A stretch of DNA of 64,000 nt from Candidatus Borrarchaeum weybense (GTDB lineage Archaea > Asgardarchaeota > Sifarchaeia > Borrarchaeales > Borrarchaeaceae), in assembly GCA_019057385.1 (NCBI GenBank), contig JAHQJS010000004.1, positions 676,962-740,961 of the forward strand. The letters run 5' to 3'. The number at the start of each line of letters is the position of its first letter. The stretch's first letter is position 1. A program made the translations under genes and the position numbers. Shown here piece by piece: positions 16,514-28,323 of the stretch. The notes beneath the pieces are model-generated. The model made no database searches, had not been told where the DNA came from, and saw nothing but the letters and a program-made list of their open reading frames with translations.

Positions 16514-17350
16514 CTATTGAGCCCGTGGGTATGAACCTAGGATATACAGGAACGACGTCAGTTCTTTGAGTTCCTCAAGAGCATCACTAAATTTTTTATC
16601 CTCAATGTGTCCTCCAAAATCCAGAAAGAAGATATAGTCACCAAATTTCTTTTTTGAAGGGCGTGATTCGATTTTTGTCAAATCTATATTCCTTTCCGCA
16701 AAGGGACGAAGCGTCTCGAAAAGAACGCCAGGTCTATTGATAATTCCATATACAATAGATGTTTTATCATTGCCTGTTGGTTTCTTTAGTTCTTTGCCCA
16801 CGATAACGAACCGCGTAACGTTGTTTTCCGCATCCTGAATATTTTCGTCTAAAATCTTGAGTTGATATTTTATCGCTGCTCTTTTTGACGTAATAGCCGC
16901 AGCATTTTCGTAGATGCCTCCAGCCACTTTAAGTGCCGCTTCAGTGGTAGAAGCTGCTGCTAATACTTCTGCCATTGGATAGTTTTTGTTGATGTATGAC
17001 TTACATTGTGAGAGTGCCTGTGGATGTGAGATAATGGTCGTTATTCTCTCAGATAGATCTGTAGCTAAAACATGGGCAATGGGAAGTAAGATCTCTCCAA
17101 CTACTTTGATATTTTCGTTAACAAGTGAATCCAATGTAGAAGTAACTGAACCCTGTAAAGAGTTCTCAATGGGGACTACTCCAAATTCGCAAATGTTTTT
17201 TGCAACAGAATTAACTACAGCTTCAATTGTTCTGTAAAACTTGAAATGGGTCTCATCAAAAACCGTTAATGCTGCAGCTTCAGTATAAGTTCCTCTAGGG
17301 CCGAAAACCCCAACTTTTTCATTTTCAGAAAAGACGATACCCCTGCATAT
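16514..17350 (-). CDS. pheA: Prephenate dehydratase with ACT domain; frame is open to about 17350 but lacks a canonical in-frame start
   Basis: Upstream of the annotated TTG (17134) the frame encodes VGVFGPRGTYTEAAA and GVVPIENSLQGSV; downstream SHPQALSQC, NVTRF, DLTKIESRP, LGSYP. Confidence 0.9.
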   Translation of the reverse strand: MCRGIVFSENEKVGVFGPRGTYTEAAALTVFDETHFKFYRTIEAVVNSVAKNICEFGVVPIENSLQGSVTSTLDSLVNENIKVVGEILLPIAHVLATDLSERITTIISHPQALSQCKSYINKNYPMAEVLAAASTTEAALKVAGGIYENAAAITSKRAAIKYQLKILDENIQDAENNVTRFVIVGKELKKPTGNDKTSIVYGIINRPGVLFETLRPFAERNIDLTKIESRPSKKKFGDYIFFLDFGGHIEDKKFSDALEELKELTSFLYILGSYPRAQ

Positions 17351-17417: not shown

Positions 17418-18530
17418 TCATTTTCTCTTTTTCTTCTTAAATTCCTTAACGATTTCGATATACTCTTTTACGGGAATGACATTTGGCTTCCGACGAAACC
17501 CTGCAGGTATGGTTGCATCACAACGAGAACAGAGGTTTGAACTTTTCTGCCAATCCTTGAATTCATCAGCATGTGCTGGATATCGACAATGAGGACAAAG
17601 AACAACGCCACGATCCTTATCTTCGGATTTAAAATCTTGAAAGCAAAATATGCATTTGAAATCTTCCAATGTCAGTATCCCTGCTTTCGGTTTGAGTTTT
17701 TCGAATTTTTCACTCATTTTAGGTTTTGTTTTCCGTTTAGTTTTCTTCCTAGTTGGAGTTGTAACTGCTGTTGTTGTTTTCTTGGTAGTTGATCTTTTCT
17801 TCTTGGTGGTTGGTGAGGTACTACGAGTTCTTGTCGTTGTTGAGGTGGTAGTTGTGATGGTAGTTGATCTTCCACCCCTAGGAGTTGTTGACGAACTGCC
17901 TGTCGTGCTACCGGTACTACTACTTTCAGGTATGTCTCTGCGAATAACTGTTGAAATGTCAGGGATTGCAGATTTTCCACCGAATATCCCAAATACGATC
18001 AATAAAAGCAATGAGATAATACCCAGTAGCCAAAACATTAAACCAGAGAAGAATTCCAACGCGAAATAAAATCCAAGGATTGTAATTAAAAAACTTAGAA
18101 GAATGCCAAATTTGCGGGCACTAAATGATTTCTGTCCAATATAAACCACTGCATATCTTTGGAGACAAGAATAAAGTATGAATAAGCCATACATAAGATA
18201 CGGAACTGCAAAAATGAATGTCCACGGACTCAATTGTACTGTTGAAGTCTCCAGAAGATTCCCTCTGAGTAAACCTGTAGAACGTCCCCACAAACTGTAA
18301 AGTATTCCTATAAACAGAGGACCAAAAACAAAGAACGAAGTATTATGCGGTGAGCGAAATTCACGAGCATATTTTACCCTAATTACGAATGCTAAGGTAA
18401 AACATATCCAACATCCAACAGCTAGCCAAGAAACGAACACATCTGTTGAGTTTTCAATTCCCATGCCATGTACAACTGCAGTAATTAGGCTCGCCAGTAA
18501 TATGATGGCATACCATCGCTTTTGTACCAA
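17418..18530 (-). CDS. Polytopic membrane protein with Ser/Thr/Lys-rich linker and C-terminal RING-like zinc finger (putative E3 ligase)
   Basis: About six TM helices; CIFC-x15-CPHC-x4-H..EF..W-x6-CSRC; last gene of Ubl-E1-E2-JAB run. Confidence 0.8.
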   Translation of the reverse strand: MVQKRWYAIILLASLITAVVHGMGIENSTDVFVSWLAVGCWICFTLAFVIRVKYAREFRSPHNTSFFVFGPLFIGILYSLWGRSTGLLRGNLLETSTVQLSPWTFIFAVPYLMYGLFILYSCLQRYAVVYIGQKSFSARKFGILLSFLITILGFYFALEFFSGLMFWLLGIISLLLLIVFGIFGGKSAIPDISTVIRRDIPESSSTGSTTGSSSTTPRGGRSTTITTTTSTTTRTRSTSPTTKKKRSTTKKTTTAVTTPTRKKTKRKTKPKMSEKFEKLKPKAGILTLEDFKCIFCFQDFKSEDKDRGVVLCPHCRYPAHADEFKDWQKSSNLCSRCDATIPAGFRRKPNVIPVKEYIEIVKEFKKKKRK

Positions 18531-18570
18531 TATTCCTTTACCACCATTCTTCTAATGAATTATTTCTTAA

Positions 18571-19347
18571 TTAATCATCATCATATTCAAGATAGAGTGC
18601 TTTTCCCTCTGATATCGGGTTTATAAACTCCAAAAGTTCCGGTAGTAAACGCATATCCAACTGGCCTTTAACATCAAAAGGCACCTCAAACCACGAACGT
18701 GATTTTAAATCCGCCTTGAAGATCTTGAAGCCTAATGATTTGCCGTCAATTAAGTAAGGGTCAATTACGAGAGCAAGCGATTTAGGCCATAGTTTCTGGT
18801 ATCTGATCTGGGTATCGAAATCATCCGTGCTCATAAAAAGTCCATAAGATGGGTGAGAATGATACCAACCGCAAATGAATAAGTTGTTCTTTTTGATATC
18901 GTTGAAAGCCCTCACGTAATTTTTATAATCCTTGATTTCAGCAGAAACGGCTGATCCATGTCCCATCGGATAAGCGTCTTCTATTTGAACTATAAGACCG
19001 TTATCATCTAATTTACCTGCTAGAAGTCCAATAACTTCTATCCATTGATTCTTTGGAATTCTGGAATTGGCATATTTGAATGAATGGCTTGCAATTTTGA
19101 GAATCGTCGTGACCGAAATGGTTATTGTTTCCTTATCTCTTACAGGTTCAGTAGTGACAAGTTCTTGAGTTGATATTTCTTCAGTCTCTAATTCATCATC
19201 AGGTCGGACAGTAATCTCTTCTCGGAGTTCCTCGGACATCAATAGTTCACTGCGGATTTCTTCAAGAAGTTGTTTTTTTAATTCTTCTTTGATTTTCTTT
19301 TTCAAGTCTTCTAAATCCAAAGCGTCTTTTGGTCCGTCACTATTCAT
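18571..19347 (-). CDS. JAB/MPN+ (JAMM) metalloprotease, Rpn11/CSN5-like deconjugase
   Basis: EVIGLLAG, GWYHSHPSYGLFMSTDD (HxHx7Sx2D), ALVIDP. Confidence 0.92.
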   Translation of the reverse strand: MNSDGPKDALDLEDLKKKIKEELKKQLLEEIRSELLMSEELREEITVRPDDELETEEISTQELVTTEPVRDKETITISVTTILKIASHSFKYANSRIPKNQWIEVIGLLAGKLDDNGLIVQIEDAYPMGHGSAVSAEIKDYKNYVRAFNDIKKNNLFICGWYHSHPSYGLFMSTDDFDTQIRYQKLWPKSLALVIDPYLIDGKSLGFKIFKADLKSRSWFEVPFDVKGQLDMRLLPELLEFINPISEGKALYLEYDDD

Positions 19348-19358
19348 TTAAATCGCCT

Positions 19359-19895
19359 CTACCATTTTTTGTTGGCAAATTTTTTGGTCAAATGTTTTAC
19401 TTTTTTATTAAAGTTCTTTGGGTCATTTATAAGCTCAAGTGCAGCCTTCTTGTTAAAAACGTCTGTTGGATTAACATAATACCCCTTTGTATTCAACATT
19501 GCACGAATTGCTTGTATAACAGTTACAATGGTTTTTGATGGACTCCACCCGCCTTTTTTCCCAACATAATTCGGATCTATAAGACCAAGACAGATATTTC
19601 GCTGTCCTGGATATTCGTGAGGTTTAGGCCAAAAATTCGGATGCCAAATACCAGTATGCATGCGCATAAATGGAGGGTGACGTGGATAATCTGGAGGGAA
19701 TTTAATTTCAAGTTTGAATAACCCACCTTGATATGGGGTTCCCTTGGGACCAATTAGCGTGATAGCAAGGTGATCTATGCTTTTTTGACCTGGAAACGGT
19801 TTTAATTGCGCTATTACACCTTCTTTCAGCATTTTTTTAAGTGCTGCATTATCTTGCGAAATTCGACTACTTCTAACACTCATTTTTTTCACCAT
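19359..19895 (-). CDS. Ubiquitin-conjugating enzyme E2
   Basis: GPKGTPYQGGLF.LEI.FP.DYP..PP, HPN, catalytic ICL, WSP. Confidence 0.93.
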   Translation of the reverse strand: MVKKMSVRSSRISQDNAALKKMLKEGVIAQLKPFPGQKSIDHLAITLIGPKGTPYQGGLFKLEIKFPPDYPRHPPFMRMHTGIWHPNFWPKPHEYPGQRNICLGLIDPNYVGKKGGWSPSKTIVTVIQAIRAMLNTKGYYVNPTDVFNKKAALELINDPKNFNKKVKHLTKKFANKKW

Positions 19896-19966
19896 TTATA
19901 ATAATCATATCTGTTTTTCTACGCTGTCAAAACATCAAATAGAGACTTTTTACAACCATTTGCAAT

Positions 19967-21199
19967 TTAACTGATATGTAACGTTATGAAAAGTTCCCCA
20001 TTTTTAAATCCCGCAGCAGTAACGAGTTCAAGATCTCTTAATTCGTTTTGATAAGGCGTACCATCTTGATCTACTTCTAATACATTGTCAAAATCCATTA
20101 TTGTCAAAATAGGCTCCATTTCAGGGTCTATTACAAACCCCTTTTTAATAAGTGAACTAATTATTTCGCTGCAAGGGTCAGCACGGCTCATTGTGATATC
20201 AATTCTTCGAACATTATCACCGCACTGTCTGCATTGGGGATTTCGATTCTTTCCTATTGAATATAACTTCATAGTCATTGCATTGAATATTTTGTATGAT
20301 TTAACCGGTTCACCAAGACTTTTATTTCCTTTTATTGTGTGTAAGATTTTGATAACTTCGTGAGACTGGAGGGCACTAATCACGGCGTTCATAGTTATAA
20401 TGCCAGGATCATGTATATCGATAAGCTGAACGATTTCGGCTCGTGAAAACAACGGCAGGAAATTATGGCGTTCTGCGAGTTCATTCGCTTCTTTCTGAAT
20501 AAAACTGATGTGTTCAATGTTTTTAGGATCTGCTTCGTCAAGCTCGAACTGTTCCATAAGGGATAGATATGCTTTAAAAACGCAATGGACTCTTTTTCGT
20601 GGAACTCCAACGACCGTACACGCTGCCATGTCATCCATTTCAGCCTCAGGCATTGGGTAGCACTCAAAACATGCGTTTTCATAGGGGAAAATCGTGTAAA
20701 CATGACCATGAAATCCCACAACACCTCCATCAACGAGTGGTTTATTGAAGCGCACACACTGTGCATTCAGGTTAAACCGGGCATTCATTGAGTCCAGTCC
20801 ACCGACAACAACATCCGCTGCGTCATAGATTGCGGGATCAAGTCTCTCAAGTGAGGTGTGGTAACCCTTGATCTTGATGTTCCGATTGATCTCGGTTAAT
20901 TTTTTAGCGGCGACTGTAGCTTTAGGTTCCCCCATTTTGGCACCAACAAAGAGGATCTGTCGATTTAAGTTTGAATGTTCGATTACATCCAAGTCAATGA
21001 GGTCTAGATGCCCGATACCCAGCATGGCGAGATTTTTGGCGATCTCACAACCGAGACCGCCCACCCCTGCAATCAGAACTCGTGAATTCTTAATAATTTT
21101 CTGATCCCAACCATCGAGCCTGAATTGCCGATCGTATAATTCCCGTTCTTCTGAAGTTAAATCTTCACTAAAGAAATCTGAATTTTCCAATTTTTTCAC
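19967..21199 (-). CDS. Ubiquitin-like activating enzyme E1 (ThiF/MoeB fold, UBA2/UBA3-like)
   Basis: YDRQ, GVGGLGCE, DLDVIEHSNLNRQ, GLDS..AR, ACFEC, CT....PR...HC catalytic motif, CRQC. Confidence 0.93.
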   Translation of the reverse strand: MKKLENSDFFSEDLTSEERELYDRQFRLDGWDQKIIKNSRVLIAGVGGLGCEIAKNLAMLGIGHLDLIDLDVIEHSNLNRQILFVGAKMGEPKATVAAKKLTEINRNIKIKGYHTSLERLDPAIYDAADVVVGGLDSMNARFNLNAQCVRFNKPLVDGGVVGFHGHVYTIFPYENACFECYPMPEAEMDDMAACTVVGVPRKRVHCVFKAYLSLMEQFELDEADPKNIEHISFIQKEANELAERHNFLPLFSRAEIVQLIDIHDPGIITMNAVISALQSHEVIKILHTIKGNKSLGEPVKSYKIFNAMTMKLYSIGKNRNPQCRQCGDNVRRIDITMSRADPCSEIISSLIKKGFVIDPEMEPILTIMDFDNVLEVDQDGTPYQNELRDLELVTAAGFKNGELFITLHIS

Positions 21200-21314
21200 C
21201 AGTCTCTATTTTGATTGAAAAGTACGAAATATTCGTACTTTCTTGAGAAGATATAAAAAAATGTTTAAAAGAAAGTGCTCTGTAGTTTTTTGAAAAATGA
21301 AGATTGAATTAAAT

Positions 21315-21653
21315 TCAACCTGCTGTGCTTGCTGGAATTAAGAGGACGGTATCTCCGTCGTTGATCTTATACTCAACTAAAGCACTATCCTCATCCATCG
21401 TAACGCCGTCATGACTTAAATGAAAGTCTGTTGGGGTCAATCCAAACATGTTAGAAACCGTTTCTTTAACGTCTCCCACTCGATACCCGGTATCTACAAG
21501 CAACTTCTGCTTCTTCTCACCGGGACCAATTGTTGACATGAAGTAGACGTTGACTTTCTCCCCTTCAACAATGGGGCTTGATGGCGTTTTTGAACTGATA
21601 TCTTCGGGCTTTTTCTCTTCTGGTTCAAGCTCTTCATCAAATTCTTCAGACAT
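21315..21653 (-). CDS. Ubiquitin-like protein with acidic N-terminal extension, ending ...STAG
   Basis: Beta-grasp pattern (V.DVKE.V...FGL....HL..DG..MDE...L.EY.INDGDTVLL); heads E1-E2-JAB-RING run; AAGGTG SD. Confidence 0.88.
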   Translation of the reverse strand: MSEEFDEELEPEEKKPEDISSKTPSSPIVEGEKVNVYFMSTIGPGEKKQKLLVDTGYRVGDVKETVSNMFGLTPTDFHLSHDGVTMDEDSALVEYKINDGDTVLLIPASTAG

Positions 21654-21880
21654 TTTATACCACCTTATTTTGTAACACAGCCCAAGAAGAAAATGGCACC
21701 TAGATACTTAAATATTTTTAAATTCCTAAAATTTAGCATTTGAAAATTCACAACTACTTGAAGTTCCCTCTTACAACTCAATACTCTAGAACTCTCGAAA
21801 ATGATTTCAATTTCACAAAACACATAGAACGATATTAAATCAATCGTTATATTAACAAGTCTAGTTATGATAAAGAGAGC

Positions 21881-23068
21881 GTGACCCCATTGACTGATGA
21901 TACTCCTCCCAAAACCCAAATCAGCGAGAAAGTACCAGATAAAAAGGTACTTGAGGAACTTAAGAAAGAAAGGGAAAAACTGGAAGAAGAGCGTAAAAAG
22001 TTAGAAAGGGAACGAAATGAATTGGAAAAAAGTATCAAGAAGTTTGAAAGTTACCACGTAACTATCGAAGATCTTGAAAAAAAGAGAAAAGATCGTGAGA
22101 ATGAACTTAAAGATCTTTTAAAAGAAAGGGATCGCTTAAGAAGTGAGTTGGACACGCTTAAGAATGGGGTTTTATTAGAGAAAAAGCGGATTTCCGATGA
22201 AAAAAGATACATTAATATTGAGAAGGAGAAGATCCACAAACAAAATGAAGACCTTGCCAAAGAACTTAGAAAGCAAAATGAAGAACTTGCTAAGGAAATC
22301 AACGCGAAGAATACCGAATTACACAACATTGAAGCAAGAAGTCGGAAAGAGGAGGATCGTATACGCGAGTTAAGAAAAGAAATCTCACGGTTGGAAAATA
22401 GCAGTAATTCTTTACAAAACAAAATTAACAACTTAGAAAACGAAAAAAATCGGCTTGAAACCGATAAGAAACGATTAGAACAAGATAGGAAGAATTTAAG
22501 AGACGAAGTTGATAAAATTAAAAAAGATTCTGAACTTGAGAAGAAGCGGATTTCTGACGAGAAAAAACAAATTGATAAAGATAAAGAGAAACTTCAGAAG
22601 AAAGACAAAGAGCTAGATCGGAATGAAAAAGCATTATGGCGCAAGAAAAAACAAATTGATGACGACATACAAGATCTAGAACGACATCGAAGAAAAGAGG
22701 ATGATCGACTTCGTGAATTGAATAAAACGACATCAAATTTAGAAAACAATAGGCAATCTTTGCAACGAGAAATTAGAGATTTAAAAGATGAAATAAAAAA
22801 ATTGAATAATGAGAAAAAGCGATTAGAACAAGACAGAAAGCAAGCATTAGAAGACTTAAAACGACAAGAAGCGGAAGTTCAAAAGGAAAAACGCGAAATA
22901 GAACATGAAAAGAGAAAGATTAGAGAAGAAAAAAATAGCATCAAAAATGAACGGGAAAAATTGAAACGAGAAAAAGAAAGTCTGGAAAGAGAACGAAAGA
23001 GACTAGAAGAAGAAATTAGAAAACTGAAGAGTATACCAAAAGAAAAAATAAGGACTAAAACTCCTTGA
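21881..23068 (+). CDS. Long coiled-coil protein with internal tandem duplication of about 120 aa
   Basis: E/K/R/L heptads throughout; LEKKRISDEK, RKE.DR.REL and KKRLEQDRK each occur twice. Confidence 0.8.
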   Translation: MTPLTDDTPPKTQISEKVPDKKVLEELKKEREKLEEERKKLERERNELEKSIKKFESYHVTIEDLEKKRKDRENELKDLLKERDRLRSELDTLKNGVLLEKKRISDEKRYINIEKEKIHKQNEDLAKELRKQNEELAKEINAKNTELHNIEARSRKEEDRIRELRKEISRLENSSNSLQNKINNLENEKNRLETDKKRLEQDRKNLRDEVDKIKKDSELEKKRISDEKKQIDKDKEKLQKKDKELDRNEKALWRKKKQIDDDIQDLERHRRKEDDRLRELNKTTSNLENNRQSLQREIRDLKDEIKKLNNEKKRLEQDRKQALEDLKRQEAEVQKEKREIEHEKRKIREEKNSIKNEREKLKREKESLERERKRLEEEIRKLKSIPKEKIRTKTP

Positions 23069-23109
23069 AAGTTATTTTTATGACAGTTATTTGACAAAAA
23101 GCAAGTGGT

Positions 23110-24852
23110 TTAACCCGCTCTACTTGACGGGATTAACAGGATTGTATCTCCATCCTTTATATTGAACTCTTCAAAAATACTGTTTTCATCCAATGTAATT
23201 CCGTTATAAGATAAATGAACTCCTATAGGGTTCAGTCCAAATGAATTCGACACAGTCTCCTTGATATCATTCACTTTGTGATCGAGATTAATGAGTAATT
23301 TTTGTTTCTTTTCGCCAGGTCCAATTGTGGACATGAAGTAGATGTTAATTTGTTTGTCTGTGACATCGTTTTCTATGAGTTTATCGATCTTTTCGCCAGC
23401 GATAGGTTCCGTAATTTCAGAAGTTATCATTGCAGCTGTTTCATCCGTAGGAACTTCTTCTATTGCTGACGGCAGGATGATTTCTTCGACCATTTCTGAG
23501 TCTTCAACGACTTTTTCAAGTTTAGCCTCTTCTTCTGCATGTAATTCCTTTCTTTTAGCCTGCTGTTCCTCTACTTTCTGCCTAAAGTAATTAGTGACTG
23601 TTTCAGTCATAGCATCTTGTATATCATCTTCGTCTATTGTTTTATGGTCGGTTACCAGCCATCGTGCATTAAATTGAATCACATTATCTTCGAATTCGTC
23701 AGGACATATCAGTAAAAATTCACCAGCAGAGAGTTTAGGTAATTGAGCTACTATGTCATTGGCTTTCTCTGGATTCAAACTTTTTAATAGGTGATGCACT
23801 TTTGAGATGTCCTGTTTTGTCATCATACGTCCTAATACCCAGGTGTTTGCTTGTGCCATCGCTTTGTAGTCAATGTCTGCAGGATTTTGAGTTGCAATCA
23901 GATTGCTTACGCCATATTTCCGTGCTTGTTTCATAAGCAGTTGTAAAGAATTCTTAGGGGGAGGATTATAAGGATGTGGTGGCAAATAAGGTGCAATTTC
24001 ATCAACATAGAAAATGAGTTGAGGATCATTCTTTGGATGGCGAAGCATCCATTCATATAATTGTCGGCTTAATGTTGCGATGAAGAAGTGTTTATCGGCT
24101 TCCTTATTCAGCGTGTTAAGATAGATAATGTTTACAGGGGTCTTTCCAGCCTCTACAGGCGTCAAGAAGGTATCGATATCCAGAGCTATACCCATTTCGA
24201 AAATCAGTTTAGTTGCTCCGGTCGCCAAAAATCGAATCTTTTTTGCTAGCTTTCGAATTTCTCTCGTATCGATCACACCAGAAGATCTTTCTTTGAGCTG
24301 TTCAGGAGGATTTTCCACGCATTCAGCTAAAGTCTTTAAATGGTCTAAAGGTGACCCTTGTTCCCTATAATAATCCAAAAGTTGAAAGAGATATGTCTGT
24401 GCTGCTTTCCCGGTATCATTTTCAGGATCGTAGCCTAGGAAACGAATTAAAGTTACTGCTATATTGTCTACTGCCTTTATGATATCTTCAACATCCATTT
24501 CCTCTTCTGAAAATTTTAACGGGTTTATACATAAAGGAATACCTTTTGATGATGCAGGAGTCCAGATACGAACTTCTGCATTTTCCCAATACTCTTCAGC
24601 AAATTCCAGGGGAGTTCCCATCTCTTGAAGTTTCTCTGGATCACCAAGTAGCCCCAGACTTGCAATATCTCCTTGTGGGTCGATTACTAGGGTAGGAATT
24701 TCCTGTCGTGTAGCTTCTTCCACTAATACCTTACAAAAAACAGTCTTTCCAGACCCGGAGGCGCCTAGGGTACAAATATGACGTTTTAAGGTCTTTTTCT
24801 TAAGTTCGACAAATTCCTCTGTTGCTTTATTTTTACCTAAAACTATACTCAC
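23110..24852 (-). CDS. HerA/FtsK-superfamily (DUF87/DUF853-like) ATPase fused to C-terminal ubiquitin-like domain
   Basis: Walker A GASGSGKT, VIDPQGD, Walker B FYVDE, ARKYGV...ATQNP; last 79 aa are 50/79 identical to the Ubl at 21315-21653, ending SRAG. Confidence 0.9.
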   Translation of the reverse strand: MSIVLGKNKATEEFVELKKKTLKRHICTLGASGSGKTVFCKVLVEEATRQEIPTLVIDPQGDIASLGLLGDPEKLQEMGTPLEFAEEYWENAEVRIWTPASSKGIPLCINPLKFSEEEMDVEDIIKAVDNIAVTLIRFLGYDPENDTGKAAQTYLFQLLDYYREQGSPLDHLKTLAECVENPPEQLKERSSGVIDTREIRKLAKKIRFLATGATKLIFEMGIALDIDTFLTPVEAGKTPVNIIYLNTLNKEADKHFFIATLSRQLYEWMLRHPKNDPQLIFYVDEIAPYLPPHPYNPPPKNSLQLLMKQARKYGVSNLIATQNPADIDYKAMAQANTWVLGRMMTKQDISKVHHLLKSLNPEKANDIVAQLPKLSAGEFLLICPDEFEDNVIQFNARWLVTDHKTIDEDDIQDAMTETVTNYFRQKVEEQQAKRKELHAEEEAKLEKVVEDSEMVEEIILPSAIEEVPTDETAAMITSEITEPIAGEKIDKLIENDVTDKQINIYFMSTIGPGEKKQKLLINLDHKVNDIKETVSNSFGLNPIGVHLSYNGITLDENSIFEEFNIKDGDTILLIPSSRAG

Positions 24853-27120: not shown

Positions 27121-28323
27121 CTAACATAAACTGAATAATAACCCTTTTCCATATGTTATCAACTCCACGTTGTTAATTGCGACACTGGGATTTTTTCCTT
27201 TAGGATTGTCCAACACAACTCGTTTTCCGTAACAATGAACTCCTTTTACTCTATATGTGTTATGATTATACTTGACAAGGTCATAGGGTTGCAACTGGTA
27301 TCTCTGTCTCCTAATAGACGGTTTGAATCCCTTTCTATTCTTCTGTAGCGAACGGTTATTGCGCCTGATTTGTATCACCTCATACGGGCGGCAGCGTTCT
27401 TGATTGGTGCCGCCGGCAATGACGAATGCATCATTAATATGAGATTTTTCTAAACCTAACTTATTGCGGTGGTATTTAGTAACGTATCCGTAAGTATATT
27501 CTGCATCTAATTGCTCTACTAGTTTCCAACGAATGTTATTCAGACAGGCGGTTGCTTTAAGTGGCGTCTTTGCCTGCTGCTGGATGTGAGGGTAGCCGAA
27601 CTCCTCGGCGGTCTTATCTCCTTTTTTAAGGTTACATTTCCTACAGGCGATCGTCAAATTCGACACTCGATCTGTCCCACCTCGGCTTTTCGGAACGATA
27701 TGCTCGACTTCTAGGGGCACGCCCGTTTTACCACAATAGGCACATTTGCGTCCCCACTTATCTAACAGGTATTCTTTGACTTCGTAGCCCTGAAGTTCGC
27801 CCTGCTGGTACTCTACGCCTGTAATTTCCGGATGTTGCATTTTGTGAGCGTCGAAATTGCCCACCTCTATTTTTTTGAAGGGTATCGGTAGCATCGTTTC
27901 AAGTGTTTCACCTAATCGAATATGTGAGTCATGCCGATGTTGAATACTGGGGGGTAACCAGCCTTCAGGTCGTGTTCGGTTATCAAATCGTGGTGGTCGA
28001 TACCCTAATCTGCCTCTACGAGTGCTACGATACCTACGTTTTTCCGCTAGCTTGTTAGATACATCCTTGCGCAAGCGTAACGTGCAACTGATGACTTCTA
28101 ATTTATCGGTCGTGGCACTAAATCCGAGTTTCATATATCCCGGGTCTACTCCCAGTTTAATCGATTGTGTCGCCTCTCCGGTGGCATAATTCAACTGAAT
28201 GGTAAACGGGCATCGCTGAACAACTGTTGCCTTGCCTTCTTTTAACAACTTTTTTCCTGTATGTTGTGTGGTCGGCATGAGGGGGTGCCCCCTCATGTTC
28301 AACACATAGATAGGTACTCTCAA
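27121..28323 (-). CDS. iscB: RNA-guided endonuclease IscB
   Basis: PLMP motif, RuvC-I LGVDPG, Arg-rich bridge helix, RuvC-II IEVGNFD, HNH CAYC..EHIVPKSRGGTD..SNL...C..CN, RuvC-III SHINDA; AGGAGG SD. Confidence 0.95.
   Translation of the reverse strand: MRVPIYVLNMRGHPLMPTTQHTGKKLLKEGKATVVQRCPFTIQLNYATGEATQSIKLGVDPGYMKLGFSATTDKLEVISCTLRLRKDVSNKLAEKRRYRSTRRGRLGYRPPRFDNRTRPEGWLPPSIQHRHDSHIRLGETLETMLPIPFKKIEVGNFDAHKMQHPEITGVEYQQGELQGYEVKEYLLDKWGRKCAYCGKTGVPLEVEHIVPKSRGGTDRVSNLTIACRKCNLKKGDKTAEEFGYPHIQQQAKTPLKATACLNNIRWKLVEQLDAEYTYGYVTKYHRNKLGLEKSHINDAFVIAGGTNQERCRPYEVIQIRRNNRSLQKNRKGFKPSIRRQRYQLQPYDLVKYNHNTYRVKGVHCYGKRVVLDNPKGKNPSVAINNVELITYGKGLLFSLC

Follow-up and report, generated by a model that had tools for sequence, protein, structure and literature searches.

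A 64,000-nucleotide (nt) stretch of the genome of Candidatus Borrarchaeum weybense, which we call the window, carries at positions 17418 to 24852 a cluster of genes for a ubiquitin-like modifier (Ubl) and for activating (E1), conjugating (E2), ligating (E3) and deconjugating enzymes. Sequence comparisons and structural models led us to propose that this locus probably encodes a second, self-contained Ubl cascade at the membrane, with a coiled-coil protein as acceptor and an ATPase as donor client, a grading that we give to the proposal as a whole. Below, "system A" denotes the canonical set of the same genome, which is linked to ESCRT (endosomal sorting complex required for transport) genes, and "system B" denotes the locus in the window, whose modifier ends in Ala-Gly. 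Positions are counted within the window; genes were called from a map of open reading frames (ORFs) and families from a Pfam scan.

17418-18530, minus strand: mRING, a 370-residue polytopic membrane protein; no Pfam family above threshold
18571-19347, minus strand: JAMM/MPN+ metalloprotease, 258 residues; JAB (PF01398), E 8.3e-13
19359-19895, minus strand: E2, 178 residues; UQ_con (PF00179), E 6.3e-26
19967-21199, minus strand: E1, 410 residues; ThiF (PF00899), E 1.5e-60
21315-21653, minus strand: Ubl, 112 residues; ubiquitin (PF00240), E 2.4e-5, slightly short of the curated cut-off
21654-21880: divergent intergenic region of 227 bp that separates the coiled-coil gene from the Ubl operon, from the ORF map
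21881-23068, plus strand: coiled-coil protein, 395 residues; sub-threshold coiled-coil Pfam matches only
23110-24852, minus strand: HerA/DUF853 ATPase with a C-terminal Ubl, 580 residues; HerA_C 2.8e-13, DUF87 1.8e-12, ubiquitin 2.3e-5

The Ubl, E1, E2, JAMM, membrane RING, coiled-coil and ATPase-Ubl genes, which a preliminary description of this DNA had named from the sequence, are real ORFs backed by Pfam, or in the case of mRING by other evidence. That description called the Ubl, E1, E2, JAMM and membrane RING genes co-oriented. These five operon genes do all lie on the minus strand, with 11 to 115 nt between one gene and the next, and the ATPase gene is read in the same direction. The coiled-coil gene is on the opposite, plus strand; it diverges from the Ubl gene and converges with that for the ATPase. 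The divergent arrangement of the Ubl operon and the coiled-coil gene was seen again in relatives, and the region between them presumably holds the promoters of both. An 84-residue ORF with a TTG start (21665-21919, minus strand) overlaps this region and the start of the coiled-coil gene, and is probably spurious rather than a gene.

The source genome (4.18 Mb in 8 contigs) belongs to a small class, represented by only 6 genomes in the collection searched. System A lies on the same contig as system B, in the following places.

C4:124201-128987, outside the window: canonical ubiquitin locus
C4:196-199 kb: two Snf7 genes
C4:215510-217105: system A E2-E1 pair

The canonical locus holds genes for a small RING protein (127 residues), a ubiquitin ending in ...TEGGNI, a short JAMM protein (140 residues) and a UEV-like E2 variant (245 residues), together with two ESCRT-I/II-like genes. 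Its ubiquitin thus bears Gly-Gly followed by a two-residue tail (Asn-Ile). This ESCRT-I/II-linked locus and the Snf7 genes are located ~480 to 570 kb from system B. The earlier statement that ESCRT and proteasome genes are missing is therefore true of the system B locus and not of the genome: neither the ORF map nor Pfam revealed such genes at the locus or in its flanks, and no gene for UEV/Vps23, Vps28, Vps22/25, ESCRT-III or Vps4 was found within 10 kb of it.

When we compared the two systems, their enzymes proved to be distant paralogues, with 31% identity between the E1s, 36% between the E2s and 37% between the JAMM proteins, and their modifiers showed no BLAST similarity to each other. 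Given these low identities, the window locus is likely, under the same joint grading, to be a separate and self-contained conjugation system, paralogous to the ESCRT-linked one, and the suggestion of a dedicated pathway distinct from canonical ubiquitination was well placed. The Ala-Gly end and the distinct E1 further suggest that systems A and B are insulated from each other. Alternatively, the locus could be the Asgard ubiquitin system already described, feeding the same ESCRT or proteasome pathways, with the two gene sets redundant. Its architecture does equal that of the operon in Caldiarchaeum (PMC3082918, PMC5654768), Lokiarchaeota have been reported to keep their Ub and ESCRT regions discrete (PMC9192718), and the E1s of systems A and B score alike against eukaryotic E1s (~130 and 128 bits). 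Redundancy is nevertheless quite improbable in our judgement, given the divergence of the paralogues and the suggested insulation. The composition of the two sets differs too: in system A the ubiquitin bears Gly-Gly and a tail, the RING protein is small and soluble, and a UEV and ESCRT-I/II genes lie alongside, whereas the Ala-Gly modifier, membrane RING, own JAMM and coiled-coil partner of system B are co-conserved across families.

The system B modifier consists of a disordered acidic N-terminal arm (residues 1-32), which contains a Ser-Lys-Thr-Pro motif (K22-T23-P24), and a beta-grasp domain (33-107). It ends in Ser-Thr-Ala-Gly with the stop codon directly after, so that it has no propeptide, and it carries Ala-Gly where the modifiers of typical archaeal ubiquitin operons have Gly-Gly, mostly with a short propeptide after it. 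All 29 free Ubl orthologues keep the [ST][TI]AG end; some of them have tails of 1 to 2 residues, and one has a tail of ~10. An AlphaFold2 (AF2) model of the Ubl (pLDDT 80) found Caldiarchaeum ubiquitin (6fno/6fj7) as its best Foldseek match (E 2.8e-7), followed by ubiquitin, NEDD8, ISG15 and SUMO. Homologues of Ufm1 with multiple hit regions have been reported from Asgard archaea (PMC12962969). We rejected a UFM1 identity for the Ubl, as UFM1 was absent from the top 50 fold matches, and the Ufm1 family of Pfam (PF03671) matched nothing in the genome at E values up to 1. A UFM1-type system was rejected on the evidence of the enzymes too: the E1 is nearer to Uba1, UBA2 and UBA3 (~1e-35) than to UBA5 (~1e-13), and the E2 has an HPN motif. 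Elsewhere in the genome, a 463-residue ORF (G000:C6:515361-516752, minus strand) has an N-terminal match to the ubiquitin family (PF00240, 31.2 bits).

The E1 retains the GxGGxG (45-50) and NLNRQ (77-81) motifs and the CxxC pairs of the zinc site (177-180 and 323-326). Two additions mark it: a segment with a Cys, CTVVGVPRKRVHC, inserted at 194-206, and ~85 extra residues at the C terminus. Its best relatives in the PDB are the active adenylation domain of Uba1, UBA2 and UBA3, and the UBA3 alignment spans residues 35-336, the inserted Cys segment included; sequence and models together place this enzyme with the UBA2/UBA3 type. By contrast, full-length alignments of the system A E1 extend also to ThiF, MoeB and UBA5. 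The E2 has a UBC fold, with HPN at 85-87 and a catalytic Cys102, and its PDB relatives are generic UBC proteins (~1e-15). Between HPN and the Cys runs a conserved 13-residue stretch (FWPKPxEYPGQRN), and loop 7 reads GKKGGWSP; across the aligned core, the protein is ~19 residues longer than the system A E2s. In 18 orthologues mean column identity was 79%, and H85, P86, N87 and C102 were invariant. In the JAMM protein, which has a charged helical N-terminal extension, the H-x-H-x7-S-x2-D motif is intact (HSHPSYGLFMSTDD, residues 163-176). Its closest solved relative is the Rpn11-like protein of Caldiarchaeum (6fjv, 1.3e-15), followed by Rpn11 and CSN5, and we propose that it would process Ubl tails and deconjugate the modifier.

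To what extent mRING resembles a ligase was judged from its layout, its conserved residues and its modeled fold. The protein comprises approximately six transmembrane helices (1-185), a disordered Ser/Thr/Lys-rich linker (188-267) with a conserved Arg-x-Thr-Pro, and a C-terminal RING-like domain (~284-370); in the AF2 model (pLDDT 77), six confident helices occupy 1-185 and a folded domain 270-370. The potential ligands follow the pattern C293-x2-C296 ... C312-x2-C315-x4-H320-x2-E323 ... W327 ... C334-x2-C337, a cross-brace layout in which the third ligand pair is His-x2-Glu, where the small RING protein of the same genome has His-x2-His. This architecture of six helices, linker and RING was kept in 21 orthologues, in which C293, C296, C312, C315, H320, W327, C334 and C337 were invariant and D322 and E323 nearly so. 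The best Foldseek matches of residues 284-370 were RING and U-box domains (TMt 0.5-0.74), with E values that exceed 0.1 since the domain makes up little of the query, and VIA likewise returned RING and U-box domains (Z 6.2-7.8). Among the structural matches were 3lrq, Ring1b/Bmi1, the HRD1 RING, TRIM21, Rad18 and CHIP. The domain is also 35% identical over 51 residues to the genome's own small RING protein, and Pfam gave sub-threshold matches to zf-RING_2 (2e-4 to 1e-2) and Prok-RING_1.

The membrane domain of mRING stands more apart. Foldseek against the PDB, VIA wide and the Atlas yielded only generic helical-bundle matches, and its sole relative in the Atlas was the protein's own Asgard cluster (78 members). 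A profile search against PDB sequences gave only a marginal alignment to the RING-H2 domain of RNF24 (E 0.12), and the family is small, with 113 representative clusters at E ≤1e-10 among 1.84 billion proteins. The AF2 model and the fold search agree with the earlier view that the E3 is membrane embedded, and we propose that mRING is a membrane-anchored E3 with a variant RING. A predicted complex of the E2 with the RING is consistent with this proposal: three runs reached ipSAE values of 0.68, 0.64 and 0.69, against 0.00 for the best control; of 80 solved complexes 58 attained that mark, as did 2 among 110 mismatched pairs. Contacts agreed fully (100%) between runs, with pLDDT of at least 89 for the partners, and joined helix 1, loop 4 and the Trp-Ser-Pro loop 7 of the E2 to RING residues 294-298, W327 and 330-338. 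As this is the textbook interface, part of the score may come from likeness to solved E2-RING complexes.

The coiled-coil protein is almost entirely a heptad-like, Glu/Lys/Arg-rich helix with short nonhelical ends, each of which bears a similar motif (K17-V-P19 and K393-T-P395). Its true start may lie a few codons downstream of the called one, since relatives begin with MTDDTPPK. PADLOC, like Pfam, gave only sub-threshold coiled-coil matches. The end motifs recall the modifier itself: arms of Ubl orthologues have an acidic stretch resembling Phe-Asp-Glu-Glu-Phe-Asp-Glu and then x-Lys-Thr-Pro (KTP), which was present in 26 of 29 free Ubl arms. Among 17 coiled-coil homologues, Lys-Thr/Val-Pro occurred in the first 45 residues of 16 and Lys-Thr/Arg-Pro in the last 30 residues of all, and none had a KTP-type motif in its Lys-rich interior. 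For comparison, KTP occurs at a background of 0.23 per 1,000 residues in other ORFs of the same loci, and [STE]KTP at 0.049 per 1,000 residues genome-wide. We infer that the KTP motif may be a recognition or acceptor site and, with less certainty, that the coiled-coil protein could be a dedicated substrate or scaffold of system B.

The distribution of system B across the phylum provided a further line of evidence. With the E1 as query, we recovered full-length orthologues at 56 to 83% identity in many families, and a further group at 43 to 46% identity sits in the same operon. The mRING profile matched 194 of the 400 genomes of the phylum; by family, matches were found in f22 (118/135), f8 (27/31), f11 (20/22) and f21 (9/14), and there was none in families f3-f7, f9, f14-f16 and f24-f30 or in three further pooled families (0/89). 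In a synteny sample of 20 loci with 9-kb flanks, drawn from many families, the order Ubl-E1-E2-JAMM-mRING was kept, apart from one shuffled case (G030). Because the same gene order recurs in loci from so many families, the arrangement is far beyond chance. A homologue of the coiled-coil gene adjoins the operon in 17 of the 20 loci, usually divergently, so that this gene is syntenic with the operon in other families as well, and the case that the preliminary description named as refuting it, a lack of such synteny elsewhere, does not apply.

Near-universal presence in several families and a fixed gene order indicate that the five-gene core is inherited vertically, as a cellular system and not a defense island. 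This bears directly on one of the roles first suggested for the locus, namely defense. In that role it would be an antiviral or conflict system comparable to bacterial Bil (ISG15-like), 6E/Bub or type II CBASS Cap2/Cap3, with the HerA protein as a sensor or effector scaffold as in HerA-Sir2. PADLOC did return matches to HerA (2.8e-20), mad8, E1-E2, JAB and E2 models, mobile-element genes lie nearby, and in bacteria an E1/E2 enzyme (CBASS Cap2) conjugates the C terminus of another enzyme. Those matches are generic, however (E2 0.001, JAB 0.002), and include none for the Ubl or mRING. The core, near-universal in families f22, f8 and f11, is unlike patchy islands; no nuclease, Sir2, TIR or other effector gene was found in the locus; its E1 and E2 are separate, canonical enzymes of eukaryotic type and not Cap2-like fusions; and the archaeal DUF853 relatives of the ATPase stand alone, with no defense partners. 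We therefore regard a defense role as highly improbable. The idea of DNA transfer goes unsupported for similar reasons, the system being vertical and near-universal in families, with no effector or nuclease gene in the locus.

In family f22, a 264-residue protein is encoded between the coiled-coil gene and the operon (L064:6845-7639, L073:7097-7891 and L070:3530-4324, all on the minus strand, and others). A membrane segment at its N terminus accompanies a degenerate Ubl (PF00240, 3.5e-4), and the protein ends in ...IPSRKEKN, without a terminal Gly. Loci of this family also carry a second free Ubl paralogue of 125 to 142 residues.

The remaining gene of the locus encodes an ATPase fused to a copy of the modifier. 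Walker A (GASGSGKT, 30-37) and Walker B (IFYVDE, 280-285) are present, and the N-terminal 410 residues match HerA_C at 49.8 bits (cut-off 22) as well as DUF87 at 48.3 bits (cut-off 23.2). An acidic linker joins the ATPase to a Ubl paralogue at residues ~501-580 (nt 23110-23352), which is identical to the free Ubl at 50 of 80 positions (62%) and ends in Ser-Arg-Ala-Gly-stop; it is a short domain and scores nearly equally against two types of free Ubl paralogue. Among 5.8 billion proteins, the combination of ATPase and Ubl was found in 20 clusters only, all at least 72% identical to the query. The fusion is thus confined to a genus-level clade of close relatives, and the HerA-type ATPase, which was first described as a partner of the system, is not a general one. 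The next relatives (~50% identical) carry other C-terminal modules, either a winged-helix-like domain with an unknown domain or zinc ribbons. All 18 full-length ATPase-Ubl homologues, from independent assemblies, kept both Walker motifs and [ST][TR]AG. Of the 17 whose exact terminus was inspected (all but P0014), 16 stop right after the Gly, and in P0001 a tail of 8 residues follows. The KTP motif was found in the linker of none of the full-length fusions.

A search for longer proteins with this Ubl showed that activatable ends recur on other proteins. One protein of 380 residues from an ENA contig (P0271) is a head-to-tail triple Ubl, each unit of which has an acidic arm, KTP and STAG, the last ending in STAG-Phe-Phe. 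A fusion family of ~263 residues places a zinc-ribbon-like and coiled-coil region before a Ubl that ends in STAG plus 0 to 7 residues, and a CDC48_N/vWA-Ubl fusion ends in STAG-Cys-Lys; the zinc-ribbon and vWA fusions carry the KTP motif just before the Ubl. That such ends recur on large proteins, with tails that need trimming, is our main reason to think that Ubl-ending proteins may be conjugated whole as donors. An apparent Ubl-E1 fusion (P0278) was not counted, as its junction is garbled and looks like a frameshift or read-through.

Taken together, these features suggest the following mechanism. The Ubl is made ready for use, having an Ala-Gly end and no propeptide; the E1 would adenylate its terminal Gly and form a thioester, the E2 would take over the modifier, and mRING would discharge it onto lysine residues of proteins on the membrane's cytoplasmic side, its variant RING being predicted to dock canonically on helix 1, loop 4 and loop 7 of the E2. 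The JAMM protein would reverse conjugation and would also trim the tails of 1 to 8 residues and the tandem poly-Ubl precursors found in relatives. The coiled-coil protein may serve as substrate or scaffold, with the KTP lysines at both ends as putative acceptor or recognition sites, though this step is less certain, and the KTP lysine in the Ubl's own arm would permit chains or cross-linking as in SUMO. In this genus, a duplicated modifier appears to have been fused to the C terminus of a stand-alone HerA/DUF853 ATPase. Because the activatable end is kept and the KTP arm is absent, the fusion is most likely a donor-only client, such that the same E1, E2 and E3 would tether the whole ATPase covalently to acceptor sites.

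Several observations weigh against this mechanism or against parts of it. The sixth RING ligand of mRING is Glu, not Cys or His, and the Pfam RING models score below threshold, so ligase activity of mRING is not assured. A 4.4-Mb single-contig genome of family f21 (G140) is without the system, its best E1 match reaching 2.6e-42 and a weak RING match 2.9e-12; system B is therefore not essential to all Lokiarchaeia-like cells. Another single-contig genome of that family (G143, 6.0 Mb) has the full operon and the coiled-coil gene (L066). The coiled-coil gene went undetected within 9 kb in 3 of the 20 loci, one of which is cut by a contig end, and the KTP motif could alternatively be a docking or phosphorylation site. 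As for the ATPase, HerA/FtsK-type enzymes are usually nucleic-acid translocases, and around the nearest DUF853 ATPases that lack a Ubl (Bathyarchaeia-type and zinc-ribbon type), no gene partner is conserved that would point to a function. The coiled-coil gene on the plus strand places the ATPase gene outside the transcription unit of the five-gene operon. Finally, the ATPase-Ubl gene is linked to the operon in G004 and in an ENA contig (L080, L012) and is unlinked in L011, where it lies beside RRXRR and reverse-transcriptase genes.

These last points also favor a different explanation of the fusion, in which its Ubl is a nonconjugated docking or cis-regulatory domain like those of Rad23, Dsk2 and parkin, and its adjacency to the operon is an accident of rearrangement in this genus. 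On that account one would expect the separation from the operon by an opposite-strand gene, the solitary copy in L011, the mobile-element genes that flank the fusion in the window and in L012, and the missing acidic KTP arm of free modifiers. Nonconjugated UBL domains usually lose the terminal Gly, however, and [ST][TR]AG is kept by every full-length homologue, nearly always as the exact end; the fused domain is 62% identical to the operon's own modifier, and this end is retained, ahead of short, cleavable tails, in the other Ubl fusions too. We accordingly treat a docking domain as a real though minor possibility and prefer the donor client. The mobile-element genes adjoin the fusion in three cases: an IscB-like HNH/RRXRR gene in the window (27121-28323, minus strand), a TnpB-like gene (L012:8558-9943) and the RRXRR and reverse-transcriptase genes (L011:6772-9466). 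Such elements may explain the broken linkage in L011. A paralogous DUF853/HerA ATPase of 634 residues is encoded 13 kb past the end of the window (G000:C4:754221-756125, minus strand); it is 39% identical, its linker is acidic and rich in Pro and Glu, and a helical domain takes the place of the Ubl at its C terminus.

We also considered a bolder and, in our estimate, unlikely extension of the proposed cascade, under which system B would be a protein-to-protein ligation machine at the membrane rather than a tag for degradation or sorting, and would build a covalently cross-linked coiled-coil layer beneath the membrane. The E2 and mRING would then attach Ubl C termini to the KTP lysines of the coiled-coil ends and of the Ubl arm, and Ubl-ending enzymes (the HerA-type ATPase here; vWA and zinc-ribbon proteins elsewhere) would be anchored on the layer permanently, yet reversibly through the JAMM protein. 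If true, this would make a ubiquitin-type cascade a general covalent docking system, a use that, to our knowledge, has not been met in eukaryotes or in the archaeal systems studied so far.

How does system B compare with characterized systems? The operon of Caldiarchaeum subterraneum encodes ubiquitin, proteins resembling E1 and E2, a small RING finger and an Rpn11-like JAMM protein (PMC3082918, PMC5654768, PMC6043591). System B has the same five functions in one co-oriented operon, its Ubl model is nearest to the Caldiarchaeum ubiquitin and its JAMM protein to CsRpn11, and the C2-C2-H-x2-[H/E]-C2 layout of mRING is that of archaeal small RING proteins. Unlike in Caldiarchaeum, the modifier ends in Ala-Gly with no propeptide and has a long acidic arm with KTP, the RING, in which Glu takes the sixth ligand position, is joined to a membrane domain of six helices, the E1 is longer (410 residues), with its Cys-segment insert and C-terminal extension, and the E2 has an insertion beside the catalytic Cys. 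There is also a conserved coiled-coil partner and, in this genus, the ATPase-Ubl. With the ESCRT-linked system of Asgard archaea (PMC9192718; bioRxiv 10.1101/2023.07.25.550441; PMC11188069), system B shares the phylum and an E1, E2, RING and JAMM of eukaryotic type, but it has no UEV, Vps or Snf7 neighbors, its E3 is membrane bound rather than soluble, and its modifier ends differently.

Among eukaryotic systems, Hrd1/gp78 (RING-H2) and Doa10/MARCH (RING-CH) likewise combine several transmembrane helices with a cytosolic RING that recruits a UBC-type E2, and the HRD1 RING was among the fold matches noted above. For the membrane domain of mRING, the searches gave only generic helical matches; no RINGv or RING-H2 model of Pfam matches above threshold, and the RING is C-terminal, after a long disordered basic linker. 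We regard this likeness as an analogy, not as shown homology. In the SUMO system, Ubc9 recognizes a short consensus around the acceptor Lys, and the arm of SUMO2/3 carries that consensus and forms chains. Similarly, the disordered arm of the system B modifier bears the same Lys motif as its presumed substrate, and the E1 resembles UBA2, but the motif is Lys-Thr-Pro rather than psi-Lys-x-Glu, its acceptor role is putative, and by fold the modifier is at least as near to ubiquitin and NEDD8 as it is to SUMO.

Type II CBASS (Cap2/Cap3) and Bil use an E1 and E2 to conjugate an enzyme's C terminus or a Ubl to targets, and a JAMM enzyme reverses the reaction. Our proposal is alike in idea, in that a whole enzyme would be attached via its C terminus by an E1 and E2, with a JAMM eraser; it differs in the separate E1 and E2, the RING E3, the vertical distribution and the ubiquitin-fold domain at the conjugated end. 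The ATPase itself is ~50% identical to stand-alone archaeal HerA/FtsK proteins of the DUF853 family (PF05872), with intact Walker motifs. Unlike other DUF853 ATPases, those of this genus-level clade have a Ubl, and there is no NurA-like or other partner.

The five-gene core represents a variation on the ubiquitin operon already known from Caldiarchaeum and Asgard archaea, and its Ubl-E1-E2-JAMM-RING architecture is not new (PMC3082918, PMC5654768). The system B core has probably already been counted, through generic InterPro domains, as the "Ub region" of Lokiarchaeota (PMC9192718). In the limited literature that we searched, we found no description of two insulated systems per genome, of the membrane RING, of a coiled-coil partner with a shared motif, of a poly-Ubl precursor or of enzyme-Ubl fusions, that with the HerA-type ATPase included. 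No known lineage is closer to eukaryotes than the Asgard archaea, and these features bear on how one ancestral cascade gave rise to many insulated Ubl pathways and membrane ligases: a whole Asgard clade appears already to run two cascades, one of them with a polytopic membrane RING, an Ala-Gly modifier, an eraser and a coiled-coil partner. The shared KTP motif provides a concrete substrate hypothesis, which is rare for archaeal ubiquitin systems. The ATPase, vWA and zinc-ribbon fusions and the tandem poly-Ubl suggest whole proteins as donors, which, if true, would widen ubiquitin-type chemistry. The components of system B are all small, and their reconstitution in vitro should be feasible.

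Sequencing runs matching the locus came from sediment, soil and seawater metagenomes and were DNA only, with no RNA run among them. The locus is flanked by pheA, a flavin reductase gene, a gene for an MFS transporter and the IscB-like gene. The prephenate dehydratase ORF (16514-17134, minus strand) is only ~206 to 214 residues long, as are its counterparts in L012 (18247-18888) and L080 (11010-11654); all three match the PDT profile from position 62 on, the N-terminal part of the domain being missing in each.

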